This document shows positions 1-21,851 of a DNA stretch of 21,851 nt, piece by piece. The first letter of the stretch is position 1. Each line of letters starts with the position of its first letter. This DNA comes from a virus (taxonomy: Duplodnaviria; Heunggongvirae; Uroviricota; Caudoviricetes), in the IMG/VR virus record IMGVR_UViG_2547132277_000002. One strand, 5' to 3'. The position numbers and the translations under genes are program-made. The notes below the pieces were generated by a model. That model was given only the letters and a program-made list of their open reading frames with translations, was not told the DNA's origin and ran no database searches.

Positions 1-1024
1 TCCGTAGTTCATCATCCAGCGAGATCCGTATTGATACCGGCTGGCCACACAGGCTTTCCGGTACGCTGTAACGGTTCCCGCCAACCTCGATATAGCCATC
101 CCAGGAGACATGACGGATATCGAAATAGCTGGTATCGAAGTCCGTACCCGGCAGCGGATGCAGATGCTCCTGTTCCTGCGTGAAGCGCTGTTCCGGTGTC
201 TGCCTGAACTGGCGAAGTTCTCGCCTGTCAGCAACGTCAGCCATCCACTGCTCCAGTAGCTGGTTAACATGGGCGAAGCTGTCGAACCGGCGGTACCGGA
301 TGAAGAAGTTTTCCTTGAGGTATTTCACCATCCGTTCAACCTTACCTTTGGTTCTGGCCCTTCGTGGACGGCAGGCCCGTGGCAGGAAGCCATAGTGATC
401 GGCCAGCAGCAGGAACCCGGAGTTGAACACCACCTTCCCGTTGTTATTTTTCAGCACTGCGGCTTTCTGGTTATCGACCAGCACGGTTTTCACGCTACCG
501 CCGAAGTAGCGAAAGGCGCGGACCAGTGACTCATAGGTATGTTCAGCATCCTGCTTTGGTGCCGCGAAGACATGGAAGCGACGTGAGAACCCCAGCGTAT
601 TAACCGCGAAGTTAACCCTGCATCGTTGCCCGGCAACCTCAGCCTCAACTTCTCCCCAGTCATGCTGTAGCTGGTAACCGGGCTGAGTTTCGAAGCGAAC
701 CGTTTTCTTCGATGGCCGCATCTTACGTTTGGGCTGGATGTAGTAGCGCAACATGGAACGGCCACCGGTATAACCCATCGCTTTGATTTCCGCCAGGATG
801 ACCTCGCCGTTCCAGACGTTCTCAGCCAGACGCATATCTATATAGTCCATGAACGGCTTGAGTTTGGCCATTTTGTGGCGTGTTTTTCTGGCCGGAGGTT
901 CCGGGTATTTCAGGTACCGTCTGACGGTCCGCTCAGAGCAACCAACCTGAGTGGCAATATCAACAATATACGCACCTTGCTGGCGCATTTGCTTTATCAT
1001 GTAAAAATCCTCTCTGCTCAGCAT
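1..1024 (-). CDS. istA: IS21-family transposase IstA, N-terminal ~341 codons (C-terminus beyond window)
   Basis: Minus-strand translation from ATG at 1024-1022 reads MLSREDFYMIKQMRQQGAYIVDIATQVGCSERTVRRYLKYPEPP... with no stop to the window edge; N-terminal HTH plus DDE-type core matches IstA of IS21 as recalled. Absent from ORF track because it has no stop in window. Confidence 0.8.
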   Translation of the reverse strand, partial: MLSREDFYMIKQMRQQGAYIVDIATQVGCSERTVRRYLKYPEPPARKTRHKMAKLKPFMDYIDMRLAENVWNGEVILAEIKAMGYTGGRSMLRYYIQPKRKMRPSKKTVRFETQPGYQLQHDWGEVEAEVAGQRCRVNFAVNTLGFSRRFHVFAAPKQDAEHTYESLVRAFRYFGGSVKTVLVDNQKAAVLKNNNGKVVFNSGFLLLADHYGFLPRACRPRRARTKGKVERMVKYLKENFFIRYRRFDSFAHVNQLLEQWMADVADRRELRQFRQTPEQRFTQEQEHLHPLPGTDFDTSYFDIRHVSWDGYIEVGGNRYSVPESLCGQPVSIRISLDDELR

Positions 1025-1125
1025 GAGTGTTCCCTTTGTGGTGTAGGAACCTTAAGGAAACAACATGTTGGGTGGAGCGGACAATCCAAATGGTGAATTA
1101 CTGTCTTATATCATTGGCGCTGACA
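1..1125 (-). mobile_element. IS21-family insertion sequence, left-end portion (element continues past window start; istB expected off-window)
   Basis: istA frame runs off the window edge; ~100 bp terminal region 1025-1125 lies upstream of istA; lysozyme homology of the adjacent gene stops abruptly near 1125. Exact IS end not determinable by eye. Confidence 0.65.
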
Positions 1126-14654: not shown

Positions 14655-15047
14655 TTCACCCTCCTGAGGGTTGGTAATTAAGGAGTTCTCCACGGGTCAG
14701 GTGGAGTGCGTGCGCCGGACACGGGTGAGCATCCGGCACTGGCAGTTTACTGGAAGGATATATCCCTGAAAAGTCAGGACATAACGCGAAAGCGCACGGC
14801 GAAGTTATTCTGTCTGTACGGTGTCGTTAAATTTAATTCGACCGTGCGCTTCCGGTTGTGGCAATCCGCGAAATGGCGCGGCGGTAAGTATGGCGGGGTT
14901 ATTCCTTCCCCGTTGAGGACACCGGGTTGTCAGGTTGACCATACGCTTAAGTGACAACCCCGCTGCAACGCCCTCTGTTATCAATTTTCTGGTGGCGTTT
15001 AGCGGTATCAGTTTTACTCCGTGACTGCTCTGCCGCCCTTTTTAAAG

Positions 15048-15589: not shown

Positions 15590-15681
15590 AACAGTTCCGT
15601 AATAAACATCCGCTTTCATTCTTATATGCCAGCAATGGCAGGGATTTGTTCACCCTTAAATCTGTAATGAGGTAAAACAAA

Positions 15682-18153
15682 ATGAGTAAAGTCTTTATTT
15701 GCGCCGCCATTCCGGACGAACAGGCAATAAAGGAAGAAGGTGCAGTCGCTGTAGCCACTGCCATTGAAGCCGGTGATGAACGTCGCGCCCGCGCAAAATT
15801 TCACTGGCAATTCCTGGAGCATTATCCGGCTGCTCAGGACTGCGCTTATAAATTTCTTGTTTGCGAGGATAAACCCGGTATATCCCGCCCTGCCCTCGAT
15901 TCCTGGGATGCTGAATATATGCAGGAAAACCGCTGGGATGAGGAGTCTGCTTCCTTTGTCCCGGTTGAGACTGAATCAGATCCGATGAACGTCACTTTTG
16001 ACAAGCTGACCCCTGAAGTACAGAACGCTGTCATGGTTAAGTTCGACACATGTGAAAACATCACCGTTGATATGGTGATTAGCGCGCAGGAATTGTTGCA
16101 GGAAGACATGGCAACATTCGACGGACATATCGTTGAAGCGTTGATGAAAATGCCAGAAGTTAACGCCATGTATCCAGAACTTAAGTTGCATGCCATCGGG
16201 TGGGTTAAGCATAAATGTAAGCCTGGAGCTAAATGGCCCGAAATTCAGGCAGAGATGCGCATCTGGAAAAAACGTCGCGAAGGTGAACGCAAGGAAACCG
16301 GAAAATACACGTCTGCTGTTGATCTCGCCCGCGCCAGAGTCAACCGACAGCACACTGAAAACTCAGCAGAAAATATCTCCCCTGTCACTGCAGTCATTCA
16401 TCGCGAATACAAGCAGACATGGAAAACACTGGATGACGAACTGGCCTACGCTCTCTGGCCTGGTGATGTGGATGCCGGAAACATTGACGGCAGCATCCAT
16501 CGCTGGGCAAAAAATGAAGTTATCGACAACGACCGCGAAGACTGGAAGCGTATCTCGGCATCGATGCGCAAACAGCCTGATGCCCTTCGCTACGACCGCC
16601 AGACTATTTTTGGCCTTGTCCGTGGACGTCCGATCGACATTCACAAAGATCCTGTGGCACTGAACAAATACATTACTGAATACCTGACTACAAAGGGCGT
16701 GTTTGAAGATGAAGGAACAAATCAGAGCGCAACTGATACTCTCTCGTCGCCAGTACCAGAAACTGATGCAGTGGAAACGGCAATTCCGGACAACGAAAAA
16801 ACCGAATGCAAAGTGGAAGTCGAACCATCTGTAGAACGTGAGGGGCCGTTCTACTTCCTCTTCACCGACAAGGATGGCGAAAAATACGGTCGCGCAAACA
16901 AACTTTCTGGTCTGGATAAGGCGCTGGCTGCCGGGGCTACTGAAATCACGAAAGAAGAATATTTCGCCCGCAAAAACGGTACATACTCAGGTTTACAACA
17001 AAATACTGGTGCATCTGACACGACCGCACAACCAGAGCCGGTAAAAGTTACCGCTGACGAAGTAAACAAAATTATGCAGGCAGCCAATATCAGCCAGCCT
17101 GACGCCGATGAACTGCTTGCAGTATCACGTGGTGAATTTGTTGCAGGGATTAGCGATCCGAATGATCCGAAATGGGTGAAGGGGATTGAAACCCGCGATT
17201 CTGTGAACCAGAACCAGCAAGAAACGGAACAGAACGACCAGAAAGCGGAACAAAACAGCCCAAATGTGCAACGAAAAGAGCCAAAAACGAAACAATCCGA
17301 ACCAGTAGCGCAACAGGAACCGGAAAAAGTCTGCACCGTCTGCGGTCAGAGCGGTGGCGGCAACTGCCCTGATTGTGGCGCGGTGATGGGCGACGCAACA
17401 TACCAGGAAACATTCGATGACGAGAACCAAGTTGAAGTTCAGGAAGACGATTCGGAGGAAATGGAAGGCGCTGAACATCCACACAAGGAGAATGCTGGCA
17501 GCGCTCAGGACCACGCCAGCGATAATGAAACTGGCGAGGCGACAGATCTCTTAATTAAGGCGAACGGTCATCATAATCTCACATCCACCAGCAGAGCGGG
17601 GATTCATCTGATGATCGACCTTGAAACCATGGGAAAAAATCCCGATGCCCCGATTATCTCAATAGGCGCAATATTTTTCGATCCACAAACCGGAGATATG
17701 GGACCGGAATTTAGCAAGACCATCGATCTGGATACTGCTGGCGGAGTCATTGATCGTGACGTCATTAAATGGTGGCTGAAGCAATCACGTGAAGCGCAGT
17801 CTGCCATTATGACCGATGAAATCCCGTTAGATGATGCACTACTGCAATTGCGGGAATTTATCGACGAAAACTCCGGTGAATTTTTTGTTCAGGTCTGGGG
17901 AAATGGAGACAACTTCGACAACGTGATTTTACGCCGCTCATACGAACGACAGGGGATCCCCTGCCCGTGGCGCTACTGCAACGATCGCGATGTACGCACA
18001 ATCGTTGAATTAGGAAAAGCCCTGGACTTCGATGCCAGAACGGCTATTCCATTCGAAGGTGAGCGCCATAATGCACTTGATGACGCTCGTTACCAGGCAA
18101 AATACATTTCAGCTATCTGGCAAAAACTGATCCCGAGTCAGGCTGATTTTTAA
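15682..18153 (+). CDS. RecE-like large exonuclease: central C4 zinc finger and C-terminal DEDDh 3-prime to 5-prime exonuclease domain
   Basis: 823 aa; segment ELLAVSRGEFVAGISDPNDPKWVKGIETRD resembles RecE as recalled; CTVCGQSGGGNCPDCG zinc finger; C-terminal Exo I DLE (MIDLETMG), Exo II NGDNFDNVIL, Exo III HNALDDA. Confidence 0.7.
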   Translation: MSKVFICAAIPDEQAIKEEGAVAVATAIEAGDERRARAKFHWQFLEHYPAAQDCAYKFLVCEDKPGISRPALDSWDAEYMQENRWDEESASFVPVETESDPMNVTFDKLTPEVQNAVMVKFDTCENITVDMVISAQELLQEDMATFDGHIVEALMKMPEVNAMYPELKLHAIGWVKHKCKPGAKWPEIQAEMRIWKKRREGERKETGKYTSAVDLARARVNRQHTENSAENISPVTAVIHREYKQTWKTLDDELAYALWPGDVDAGNIDGSIHRWAKNEVIDNDREDWKRISASMRKQPDALRYDRQTIFGLVRGRPIDIHKDPVALNKYITEYLTTKGVFEDEGTNQSATDTLSSPVPETDAVETAIPDNEKTECKVEVEPSVEREGPFYFLFTDKDGEKYGRANKLSGLDKALAAGATEITKEEYFARKNGTYSGLQQNTGASDTTAQPEPVKVTADEVNKIMQAANISQPDADELLAVSRGEFVAGISDPNDPKWVKGIETRDSVNQNQQETEQNDQKAEQNSPNVQRKEPKTKQSEPVAQQEPEKVCTVCGQSGGGNCPDCGAVMGDATYQETFDDENQVEVQEDDSEEMEGAEHPHKENAGSAQDHASDNETGEATDLLIKANGHHNLTSTSRAGIHLMIDLETMGKNPDAPIISIGAIFFDPQTGDMGPEFSKTIDLDTAGGVIDRDVIKWWLKQSREAQSAIMTDEIPLDDALLQLREFIDENSGEFFVQVWGNGDNFDNVILRRSYERQGIPCPWRYCNDRDVRTIVELGKALDFDARTAIPFEGERHNALDDARYQAKYISAIWQKLIPSQADF

Positions 18154-18404
18154 TGTTCAACCGTCGCCAGTTGTCGTTGGTATTCTGCAACTGGCGCGTT
18201 CCGGAGTGATAGCCATGAGCGAACAATACCTGATAACGCTCGATGAGTGGAAACCAAAACGGTTCAGTCTCCCAATAACAAACACTACCCTGGTGAAATA
18301 CGGAAAACTAGGATACATCGTTCCAAGACCACAAAAAATTCGTGGGCGTTGGCTGATAGATCGCCGAGCAGTATTTGTTGGGCCTGGTGGGTAGTGACTC
18401 CAAC

Positions 18405-18908
18405 TTACTGATAGTGTTTTATGTTCAGATAATGCCCGATGACCTTGTCATGCAGCTCCACCGATTTTGAGAACGACAGTGACTTCCGTCCCAGCCTTGC
18501 CAGATGTTGTCTCAGATTCAGATTATGTCGCTCAATGCGCTGAGTGTAACGCTTGCTGATAACGTGCAGCTTTCCCTTCAGGCGTGATTCATACAGCGGC
18601 CAGCCATCCGTCATCCATACCACGACCTCAAAGGCCGACAGCAGGCTCAGAAGACGCGCCAGTGTGGCCAGAGTGCGTTCACCGAAAACGTGCGCCACAA
18701 CTGTCCTCCGTATCCTGTCATACGCGTAAAACAGCCAGCGCTGACGTGATTTAGCACCGACGTAGCCCCACTGTTCGTCCATTTCCGCGCAGACAATCAC
18801 ATCACTGCCCGGTTGTATGCGCGAGGTTACCGACTGCGGCCTGAGTTTTTTAAGTGACGTAAAACCGTGTTGAGGCCAACGCCCATAATGCGGGCAGTTG
18901 CCCGGCAT
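18405..18908 (-). CDS. insB: IS1 InsB frame (expressed as the InsAB-prime transposase by -1 frameshift)
   Basis: 167-aa ORF overlapping the insA 3-prime end in the -1 frame, as in IS1. Confidence 0.85.
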
Positions 18909-19102
18909 CCAACGCCATTCATGGCCATATCAATGATTTTCTGGTGCGTACCGGGTTGAGAAGCGGTGTAAGTGAACTGCAGTTGCCATGTTTTACGGCA
19001 GTGAGAGCAGAGATAGCGCTGATGTCCGGCGGTGCTTTTGCCGTTACGCACCACCCCGTCAGTAGCTGAACAGGAGGGACAGCTGATAGAAACAGAAGCC
19101 AC
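18827..19102 (-). CDS. insA: IS1 InsA
   Basis: 91-aa [48 protein letters not shown]..., zinc-finger/HTH protein of IS1. Confidence 0.9.
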
Positions 19103-19229
19103 TGGAGCACCTCAAAAACACCATCATACACTAAATCAGTAAGTTGGCAGCATCACCGGCCTGGTGAAACGGGAATTGCGCCGGAAATTCATACTGGCGA
19201 TGATGATGCACTGAAGGAGATTTTAACTC

Positions 19230-20348
19230 ATGTCACCGAGGCCACGAAAAAACAGCACTGACGTAGCCGGTCTTTACGAAAAGTTTGATCGCAGAACTGG
19301 CAGAGTTTACTACCAGTATAAAAATCCTGTGACTGGAAAATTTCACGGACTAGGAACAGACAAAGGTAAGGCAGAAAAAATCGCTTCCACAGCCAATCAG
19401 CGAATAGCTGCAGCAGAAGCTGAATATTTCATGCGTAAAATTGATGAAAGTCCGTCAGCAACAAAACGTCGGGGTATCAGATTAAAGGCATGGGTTGATC
19501 GATATCTGAAAATACAGGACACGCGACTGAAAAATGGAGATATTGCAGCTACAACTCACAAAGAAAAAGCTCGAATGGCTGCATACCTGGTTTCCCGTCT
19601 GGGAAACCACCCATTGAAAGAACTGGAAGTAAGAGACTTTGCATTAATACTGGATGAGTGGCTGGATAAAGACATGGTCAGCACAGCGAGAGTAAATCGC
19701 GGATTATGGGTTGATATTTATAAAGAAGCACAGCATGCAGGGGAAGTTCCTCCTGGATGGAATCCTCCGGAGGCTACCCGTAAACCGATCCCTAAAGTAA
19801 CCAGAGCCAGGCTCACCATGGAAGACTGGCAAAAAATTTACAATGCAACGCCTGAAAAACACTTTATCCGTAACGCAATGCTTCTTGCGATTGTTACTGG
19901 TCAGCGCCGTGATGACATTTGCCACATGCGTTTTTCAGATGTGTGGAACGAACACTTGCATATCACCCAGGGAAAAACCGGAATGCGTCTGGCGTTACCG
20001 CTTACACTACGCTGTGATGCCATTGGGATAACGTTAAAAGAAGTTATTGATGGGTGCCGAGACAGAATATTAAGTCCATATCTAATCCATAGTCGGCACC
20101 AGAAACAACCGAAGCCGATGAGTAAAGACAACCTGAGCGACTACTTTGCCAAAGCACGGGATCTGGCTGGGATAATTCCACCAGCAGGAAAAACTCCGCC
20201 AACATTTCATGAACAACGCTCTCTATCAGAACGGCTGTACCGTGCACAGGGTATCGATACAAAAACATTACTAGGACATAAAGTCCAGGCAACCACCGAT
20301 CGCTATAACGATACTCGAGGTCAGGAATGGGTTAAGTTGGTTATTTGA
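19230..20348 (+). CDS. int: Tyrosine-family phage integrase
   Basis: 372 aa; C-terminal catalytic region LLGHKVQATTDRYNDTRGQEW (His...Tyr) like lambda Int; preceded by xis; 3-prime end faces the potB/potC junction. Confidence 0.85.
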   Translation: MSPRPRKNSTDVAGLYEKFDRRTGRVYYQYKNPVTGKFHGLGTDKGKAEKIASTANQRIAAAEAEYFMRKIDESPSATKRRGIRLKAWVDRYLKIQDTRLKNGDIAATTHKEKARMAAYLVSRLGNHPLKELEVRDFALILDEWLDKDMVSTARVNRGLWVDIYKEAQHAGEVPPGWNPPEATRKPIPKVTRARLTMEDWQKIYNATPEKHFIRNAMLLAIVTGQRRDDICHMRFSDVWNEHLHITQGKTGMRLALPLTLRCDAIGITLKEVIDGCRDRILSPYLIHSRHQKQPKPMSKDNLSDYFAKARDLAGIIPPAGKTPPTFHEQRSLSERLYRAQGIDTKTLLGHKVQATTDRYNDTRGQEWVKLVI

Positions 20349-20518
20349 CAAACACCATATGGAATATCCGTCACCATCTCAGGAAAAAAGTGTTGTAAAA
20401 TGCGTGGCCTAGTTTTGGGGAAACGTTTTGGAGAGATTTTGGAGAAAGGAAAAAATTGAATAAATTCAAAATCCTGAAAGTGTCCCGCCTTATGAATAAG
20501 AAGGTGGAACTCGAATGA
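20349..20518 (+). other. Prophage-chromosome junction: att region plus potB 3-prime remnant (reads ...[11 protein letters not shown]-stop, overlapping potC ATG)
   Basis: In-frame segment ending at TGA 20516-20518 overlaps the potC start exactly as a native potB terminus would; direct repeat TTTTGGAGA x2 at about 20425-20444 may be Int arm-type sites. Core boundary not resolvable without the other junction. Confidence 0.4.
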
Positions 20519-21309
20519 TCGGTCGACTGCTTCGCGGCGGTTTTATGACCGCTATCTACGCGTACCTGTATATCCCAATCATTATTTTGATTGTGAACTC
20601 CTTTAACAGCTCGCGCTTTGGCATCAACTGGCAGGGTTTTACCACCAAATGGTATAGCCTGCTGATGAACAACGACAGCCTGTTACAGGCAGCGCAGCAT
20701 TCACTAACAATGGCGGTGTTTTCGGCGACGTTTGCTACGCTTATCGGTTCACTGACGGCAGTTGCGCTGTACCGTTATCGCTTTCGTGGTAAGCCGTTCG
20801 TTAGCGGAATGCTGTTTGTGGTGATGATGTCACCAGATATCGTGATGGCGATTTCGCTGCTGGTGCTGTTTATGCTGCTGGGTATTCAGCTTGGCTTCTG
20901 GTCGCTGCTGTTCTCGCATATCACCTTCTGCCTGCCATTTGTGGTGGTGACGGTGTATTCGCGCCTGAAAGGTTTTGACGTGCGAATGCTGGAAGCGGCG
21001 AAAGATCTCGGTGCCAGCGAATTTACCATTCTGCGAAAAATCATTCTGCCACTGGCAATGCCAGCGGTGGCGGCGGGCTGGGTGTTAAGCTTTACCCTGT
21101 CGATGGACGATGTGGTAGTTTCTTCGTTCGTCACCGGACCAAGTTATGAAATTCTGCCGTTAAAAATTTATTCGATGGTCAAAGTCGGCGTATCGCCGGA
21201 AGTTAACGCGCTGGCAACCATATTACTGGTGCTGTCGCTGGTGATGGTTATTGCCAGCCAGCTTATTGCTCGTGATAAAACGAAAGGTAACACAGGGGAC
21301 GTTAAATGA
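20515..21309 (+). CDS. potC: Spermidine/putrescine ABC transporter permease PotC
   Basis: 264 aa [33 protein letters not shown]... matches E. coli PotC as recalled; ABC permease signature EAAKDLGAS...ILPLAMP. Confidence 0.9.
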
Positions 21310-21851
21310 AAAAATGGTCACGCCACCTGCTCGCGGCGGGTGCTCTGGCACTGGGCATGAGCGCCGCTCACGCCGATGACAACAACACGCTGTATTTCTA
21401 CAACTGGACCGAGTACGTGCCGCCAGGACTGCTTGAACAGTTCACCAAAGAAACCGGTATTAAGGTTATCTATTCGACTTACGAGTCGAACGAAACCATG
21501 TACGCCAAGCTGAAAACATACAAAGACGGTGCCTATGATCTGGTGGTTCCTTCAACCTATTACGTTGATAAAATGCGTAAAGAAGGGATGATCCAGAAGA
21601 TCGACAAGTCGAAGTTAACAAACTTCAGCAATCTCGATCCAGACATGCTCAACAAGCCTTTTGACCCGAATAACGACTACTCCATTCCGTATATCTGGGG
21701 TGCGACGGCGATTGGTGTTAACGGTGATGCGGTGGATCCGAAATCTGTCACCAGCTGGGCCGATCTGTGGAAGCCAGAGTACAAAGGCAGCCTGCTGTTG
21801 ACCGACGATGCCGTCCCCGAAGTGTTCCAGATGGCGCTGCGTAAGCTGGGC
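21306..21851 (+). CDS. potD: Spermidine/putrescine periplasmic binding protein PotD, N-terminal 181 codons (continues past window end)
   Basis: ATG 21306 overlaps the potC stop; [23 protein letters not shown] signal peptide then [31 protein letters not shown]...; absent from ORF track because there is no stop in window. Confidence 0.9.

Follow-up and report, generated by a model that had tools for sequence, protein, structure and literature searches.

An IS1 insertion splits the excisionase gene of a Rac/Qin-like prophage remnant at potB in Escherichia coli

The window analyzed here (i.e., the whole stretch of 21,851 nucleotides of the record IMGVR_UViG_2547132277_000002, to which all coordinates refer) contains an IS1 element that splits the excisionase gene (xis) of a prophage, and the 3' end of this gene overlaps the integrase gene (int). 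This molecular reading, which had been proposed from the letters alone in the initial annotation, was confirmed as real and correct. The host was assigned to E. coli, specifically to an enterotoxigenic-type lineage rich in IS1, and the element to a lambdoid, Rac/Qin-like remnant located at the 3' end of potB. The explanation that we consider likely for the whole is that IS1 hit the xis gene of this remnant, that excision is reduced and that the remnant has become further fixed in the chromosome. The features on which this account is built are listed in Table 1.

Table 1. Features of the interrupted excision module and its surroundings, in window coordinates.
Feature	Coordinates	Strand	Basis
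823-aa exonuclease gene, YdfE-like, with C-terminal Rv2179c-like 3'-5' exonuclease domain	15682..18153	+	PF16473, E = 6.4e-65
Truncated xis ORF, 59-aa product	18215..18394	+	Start is the RefSeq excisionase start
Left 9-bp target-site duplication copy, GGCCTGGTG	18381..18389	.	Single copy in the B2C and KFu019 empty sites
IS1, intact, 768 bp	18390..19157	-	Pfam, terminal repeats, identity to annotated copies
Right 9-bp target-site duplication copy, GGCCTGGTG	19158..19166	.	Direct sequence check
Orphaned xis 3' part, codons 59-89 and stop	19167..19261	+	Conserved C-terminal tail; int overlap of 32 bp
Lambda-type integrase gene, intact, 372 aa	19230..20348	+	Pfam; lambda Int identity
att core TGAATAAGAAGGTG, 14 bp	20493..20506	.	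Prophage/chromosome junction, inside the genuine potB 3' end
potC, first chromosomal gene past the prophage end	20515..21309	+	ORF list; B2C/KFu019 annotation

The two copies of GGCCTGGTG that flank the element were identical at 9/9 bp, both when the region 17900-19700 was read directly and by a script check, and the identity is confined to these 9 bp: the left copy is preceded by G and the right one by C, and the bases that follow are GGTAGT and AAACGG, respectively. Since nine bases would match at two fixed positions by chance with a probability of about 4e-6, a chance repeat was rejected. The ends of IS1 are imperfect inverted repeats of ~23 bp, with GGTAGTGACTCCAACTTACTGAT at the start and GGTGATGCTGCCAACTTACTGAT at the end (on the other strand), which occupy 18390-18412 on the insB' side and 19135-19157 on the insA side. 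On the minus strand, insA runs from 19102 to 18827 and encodes an InsA of 91 aa, the insB' frame runs from 18908 to 18405, and the A6C frameshift motif starts at 18851 (IS1 position 307). An in silico -1 shift at this motif gave a stop-free InsAB' of 232 aa. Pfam identified the domains Zn_ribbon_InsA, HTH_Tnp_IS1, and DDE_Tnp_IS1 with E-values from 3e-21 to 1.5e-74, and 768/768 bp of the element were 100% identical to annotated IS1 copies from many complete E. coli genomes, including that of strain B2C. The claim of a complete 768-bp IS1 with a perfect 9-bp duplication thus held at every coordinate after the script check, the Pfam search and the identity comparison. IS1 is abundant in B2C and related strains, whose chromosomes each contain at least 40 pieces that match it, and the isoform is a non-K-12 one, since the best match in most complete E. 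coli genomes was of 90-99% identity and 453 records reached at least 99%. Transposition competence can be inferred from the intact coding capacity and from the identity to multi-copy elements, and the IS1 copy is complete and, judged by its sequence, functional.

In silico deletion of 18390-19166, which takes out IS1 and one repeat, joined 18215-18389 to 19167-19261 and restored an ORF of 89 aa, with its ATG at 18215 and its stop ending at 19261. This ORF overlaps the start of int (19230) by 32 bp, so that both the ~89-aa reading frame and the overlap expected from the initial annotation were recovered. The insertion point corresponds to codon 58/59 of xis, and the orphaned last 31 codons now lie 777 bp downstream, without a start codon. 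When the region 17900-19700 was queried by megablast against 5,426 complete E. coli genomes, many of them were found to hold exactly the window sequence minus these 777 bp (1,024 bp). Among them, B2C and KFu019 have the uninterrupted site with one GGCCTGGTG, base-for-base identical across the junction, and in both strains RefSeq calls the intact gene (270 bp) excisionase WP_000003742.1. The comparison with strains without IS1 that had been suggested as a check therefore yielded empty sites with a single GGCCTGGTG, which proves that a transposition event took place. Immediately upstream of xis lies the exonuclease gene, which is also annotated as "exonuclease" in B2C and KFu019. In the gap of 61 bp between its stop and the xis start, at 18165-18196, we observed a perfect 9-bp inverted repeat (CGCCAGTTG / CAACTGGCG) with a spacer of 14 nt and no T-run after it, which could be a candidate protein-binding site or RNA hairpin.

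The assignment of the restored gene as the excisionase of a lambda-type int/xis module is well supported by sequence comparisons. The restored protein matched PHROG 629 ("excisionase") over residues 4-85 with E = 4.6e-26, and the Pfam family Exc (PF07825) over residues 7-58, the latter marginally (23.2 bits for a cut-off of 23, E = 7.1e-5). The Xis of lambda (NC_001416) aligned in register with 29% identity (E = 0.008 in pairwise BLASTP), and a profile of 8 homologues compared with it by hhalign gave P = 2.4e-4 and a probability of 44% for residues 6-56 against lambda 2-51. A protein of 100% identity carries the annotation excisionase in two deposited phage genomes (ON470619 and ON470612), and phages of the PPompW type encode a "xisE" of 46% identity. 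NCBIfam returned no model match for Xis or Int, and neither phmmer nor a profile search of PDB chain sequences reached lambda Xis, their top matches being chance-like (E of at least 0.09). For the winged-helix fold of ~55 residues that characterises this family, the AlphaFold2 models were of low confidence, with a mean pLDDT of 51.4 for the 59-aa product from a single sequence and of 53.6 for an alignment of 8 full-length homologues (89 aa); a Foldseek search of PDB with the latter model gave no match at E of 0.001 or below, the best being at E = 1.3. No paper on this particular Xis protein was found in a literature search. The homology to Xis on which the initial reading depended was thus present in PHROG 629, in Pfam Exc and in the lambda Xis alignment, and these comparisons indicate that the description "lambda-Xis-like" holds as distant homology.

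The adjacent integrase matched the Pfam families Arm-DNA-bind_1 (PF09003, E = 3.7e-21) and Phage_integrase (PF00589, E = 1.7e-18) and could be aligned with lambda Int almost from end to end at 35% identity (E = 1e-61), including the catalytic positions R, K, H, R, H, and Y. As read from this alignment, the motifs TGQRRDD, QGKTG, FHEQRSL, LLGHK, and RYND correspond to lambda R212, K235, H308/R311, H333, and Y342, respectively. No mismatches were found between this int and that of B2C. In KFu019 (L001 4554-5672) the situation is the reciprocal one, as xis is intact and the adjacent int is an annotated pseudogene with an internal stop, i.e., the same module is disabled on its other side. The core TGAATAAGAAGGTG was missed by a generic repeat search across the B2C prophage and was found by direct alignment of the two prophage ends. 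It is intact at both of them in B2C (L002 4589-4602 and 33716-33729), bounded by potB and potC, and this evidence from two ends comes from B2C because the window covers the int-proximal end only. The prophage of ~29 kb splits potB from potC within the potABCD operon (L002 3757-4620 and 33738-34532 in B2C; 20349-20515 in the window), and potCD come next after int, in the same orientation.

Without IS1, the window is closest to E. coli B2C, isolated from human stool in Viet Nam; the two differ at 3 positions over the 18.4 kb on the left side of IS1 and in a single short indel block towards the right end. Identity to other strains, O6:H16 isolates among them, is 99.9%. An origin from Shigella, a group likewise rich in IS1, was considered and set aside in view of this closeness to B2C. 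The three mismatches (8500, 8503, and 8509) all fall where an A-rich tract begins; a hairpin follows this tract (AAAAAAAAACCCCGCCGAAGCGGGTTA), and two related copies of the motif occur elsewhere in the window. Within potD, at about 21810-21820, the window reads GCC GTC CCC GAA (A-V-P-E) where B2C reads GCC CGT GAA (A-R-E), in frame; this 3-bp difference in the gene of the polyamine-binding protein may be genuine or due to a sequencing error at this spot. The B2C element between potB and potC spans ~29 kb and is degraded: its portal, tail, and tail-fibre-assembly genes are partial, hok is partial, and the lysozyme gene is interrupted by an element of the IS21 family, the istA of which occupies the window from 1 to ~1024. 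This element is ISEc62 (L002 13058-15024; window 1-1125), and the window starts inside its istA. Because the strains H32-H39 match the window only from ~1123 onward, ISEc62 is also variable between strains. Further features of the remnant are four prophage tRNA genes on the minus strand at 2446-2752 (Gly, Thr, Lys, and Ile in the B2C annotation) and the small RNA DicF on the plus strand at 14987-15038 (68.6 bits), in the early-left operon beside dicB. What IS1 hit was therefore an excision module that had stayed intact in a prophage dead in other respects.

The product left by the insertion consists of 58 native residues and a Gly, followed by a TAG stop that the end of IS1 provides. It retains the part aligned to the DNA-binding domain of lambda Xis (lambda 2-56) and loses a conserved tail of 31 residues. 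Residue 57 (Pro) lines up with Pro55 of lambda Xis, so that the product approximates lambda Xis 1-56 and the insertion point falls near lambda residue 56, close to the end of the folded DNA-binding fragment (Xis 1-55) that has been crystallised (PMC7145599). The lost tail (APEIH..DDDALKEIL.HVTEATKK) is conserved at least as well as the N-terminal domain among 8-13 homologues with identities down to 57%, including those of Salmonella and Enterobacter, and P64, E65, D70, D71, L74, I77, L78, A84, and T85 vary little or not at all over this range. Part of this conservation could stem from the overlapping ribosome-binding site and start codon of int and not from the function of Xis. As for lambda, PMC4880445 describes Xis bound at X1 with its C-terminus pointing to the N-terminal domain of Int at P2, which is consistent with Xis-Int cooperativity, and cites Bushman 1985, Numrych 1992, and Sarkar 2002 as tying the Xis C-terminus to cooperativity with Int. 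A role of the tail in contacting Int is an analogy here, because the homology is distant and the tail is acidic where that of lambda is basic.

In our account, an intact IS1 transposed into codon 58/59 of xis and made the usual 9-bp target duplication, its source being presumably the identical copies present at many places in the closest sequenced genomes. The truncated Xis would probably still bind DNA and be unable to cooperate with Int, and a fragment of this kind, DNA-binding and blind to Int, would by analogy lead to impaired excision. Excision is thus probably impaired by the truncation, with the Xis-dependent route expected to be strongly reduced. Since the element was already a non-viable remnant, the practical effect would be its further fixation in the chromosome and not the inactivation of a live phage.

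The insertion also separates the intact int from everything upstream. IS1 insertions are classically polar in either orientation; N-antiterminated transcription from lambda pL can override polarity of the IS1 type, and lambda pI is located at the xis start. No N-like gene was identified in the element, and a literature search on IS1 polarity and Rho termination returned nothing usable. A consensus scan of the plus strand from the IS1 end (19157) to int (19230) found no promoter-like site, and the scan of the region as a whole found 3 promoter-like sites where 1.4 were expected, which is not above background. Because of this lack of promoter-like sites between IS1 and int, it is plausible that int was cut off from early-left transcription, as the initial annotation had proposed, on the premise that a Rac/Qin-like element reads xis-int from the early-left promoter. 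Expression of int would then probably be lowered during any induction.

We next consider how widespread and how old the interrupted allele is. The xis gene was present in 1,627/5,426 complete E. coli genomes and was uninterrupted in 1,623 of these, which suggests that the excision module is usually maintained. The allele with IS1 at codon 58/59 was found by megablast in none of the 5,426 complete genomes, and the exact 30-mer of the xis-IS1 junction was absent from a species-representative genome collection and from JGI metagenome contigs. On the other hand, an exact protein look-up revealed that the 59-aa truncated product has been called on ~8 draft or metagenome contigs of other assemblies. 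Among these sequences, a contig of GCA_049978765.1 follows the window with 100% identity until it ends, inside IS1, whereas GCA_000357645.1 and an ENA metagenome scaffold have the identical junction and patches of divergence in the exonuclease gene, with overall identities of 97.5% and 98.5%. Against the contigs L004 and L006 these patches fall at window positions 15600-16400 and 16900-18024, and their distribution suggests mosaic recombination. The IS1 part of the L004 contig differs at ~26 positions, from window position 18600 onward, which may reflect a collapsed repeat in a draft assembly. Since the same junction is found in ~8 contigs, two of them with patchy flanks, the allele is not a one-off, and a single event followed by recombination of the flanks is more economical than independent hits at the same base. 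The initial annotation had called the event recent on the strength of the perfect repeat, which is a weak clock; the comparison of genomes is the better evidence on age. The claim stands in so far as B2C is nearly identical without IS1 and complete genomes lack the allele, and it is weakened by the recurrence of the junction in draft and metagenome contigs. Judging from these comparisons, the insertion is younger than the split from B2C-like genomes and not unique to one isolate.

The xis gene has been broken more than this once. In DETEC-E223 (L007 1709-3177), the same gene carries the IS5-like element ISKpn26. In addition, the first residues of protein P0004 match the frame that leaves the IS1 end and the protein continues at xis codon 9, so that it represents an apparent second, independent IS1 insertion near that codon. 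The proteins P0015, P0019, P0020, P0021, and P0023 are frameshift alleles of xis. Altogether, the proteins from other strains that point to xis inactivation are P0004, P0015, and P0018-P0023.

Among the alternatives, an assembly artefact in which a repeat was misplaced would be a natural suspicion, as this lineage carries many copies of IS1 and assemblies tend to fail at repeats. It was nonetheless rejected, and we regard it as practically excluded: the element measures exactly 768 bp, it sits between two perfect copies of 9 bp that occur only once in the empty site, and the xis-IS1 junction occurs independently in two NCBI draft assemblies and the ENA metagenome scaffold. A less easily dismissed possibility, which we still judge unlikely, is that the element is not locked in place, either because the truncated Xis is partly functional or because excision proceeds by Int alone or with the Xis of another prophage. 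The 59-aa fragment does cover the whole region aligned to the DNA-binding domain of lambda Xis, and the prophages Sp4 and Sp14 of O157 Sakai lack a functional Xis and are still excised into circles (PMC2669165), which leaves room for residual excision by Int alone or with Xis supplied in trans. Against it speak the strong conservation of the 31 lost residues, the link between the C-terminus of lambda Xis and Int cooperativity in the work cited above, and the cryptic prophage rac, in which deletion or overproduction of the excisionase alters the rate of excision (PMC4632033).

Whether the insertion matters to the cell is a separate issue. We give about equal weight to the possibility that it is functionally irrelevant, i.e., that IS1 landed in dispensable DNA of a prophage already particle-deficient and possibly uninduced, and is carried neutrally. 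The truncated portal and tail genes and the IS21-split lysozyme gene of the sister-strain prophage in B2C, the richness of the lineage in IS1, and the other null alleles of xis (the ISKpn26 insertion, the apparent second IS1 insertion and the frameshifts) all favor such neutrality, while the intact int and att cores of B2C and the rarity of interruptions among complete genomes that carry xis count against it. Neutral carriage is, moreover, compatible with the molecular description given above and conflicts only with an adaptive reading. The adaptive reading, which we hold to be very improbable, is that the interrupted allele was selected as a "lock", with a dominant-negative fragment of 59 aa and an IS1 that insulates int together fixing the remnant, under recurrent selection for immobilisation. 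If this were true, the fragment would fill the Xis sites without recruiting Int, the fixed remnant would carry dicB, DicF, and the tRNA genes between potB and potC, and the shared junction with its patchy flanks and the repeated inactivations of xis would be the outcome of recurrent selection for immobilisation. Reduced excision and further fixation of a remnant hit in xis, as set out at the beginning, is the explanation that we retain as likely.

In practical terms, the insertion explains the automated annotation of this region, namely a "hypothetical" ORF of 59 aa, an IS1 transposase, and an orphan integrase, and it identifies the remnant at potB as probably a permanent part of the chromosome. 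The xis-IS1 junction could also mark the lineage of strains that share it. As a single case, the finding agrees with what is known of prophage remnants, whose excision modules are lost to IS insertions and frameshifts, and it is of little importance beyond correct annotation.

The case is one of ordinary IS-mediated decay of a prophage excision module that involves known families only. The insertion sequence shares its length, inverted repeats, insA/insB' organization, A6C -1 frameshift, and 9-bp duplication with the IS1 family, from which no difference was found. The arrangement of a small gene directly upstream of and overlapping the int of a heterobivalent, lambda-type integrase is that of xis-int in lambda, where the overlap is of 23 bp compared with 32 bp here, and the first ~55 residues of the protein match the DNA-binding domain of lambda Xis in register. 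On the other hand, the protein described here has 89 aa compared with 72 for lambda Xis, their identity is ~29%, and the Pfam family is reached only at its threshold. The tail is acidic (residues 72-88 are weakly predicted as helical by the model, with low confidence), in contrast with the basic tail of lambda Xis. The attachment site also differs, being potB and not attB-lambda. The pool of defective prophages of O157 Sakai offers a parallel for the decay itself, as IS insertions, frameshifts, and deletions affect the int, xis, and morphogenesis genes of its members, and some of those with a non-functional Xis still excise (PMC2669165). The IS-mediated decay of integration and excision genes is the same in that pool; the exact allele with IS1 at codon 58/59, absent from the 5,426 complete E. 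coli genomes, occurs only in draft and metagenome contigs. Finally, potB is a described prophage integration site (PMC9997748, PMC4632033), and PP_potB (from O157:H7 clade 8) and Phi-CFT073-potB occupy the same locus as the remnant analyzed here. With the Rac/Qin-type cryptic prophages that carry dicB and dicF, this remnant shares an early-left region of ydfA-ydfC, DicF, dicB, ydfD, and the exonuclease gene before xis-int. It differs from the potB prophages and the Rac/Qin types in being a remnant of ~29 kb in which xis is interrupted.
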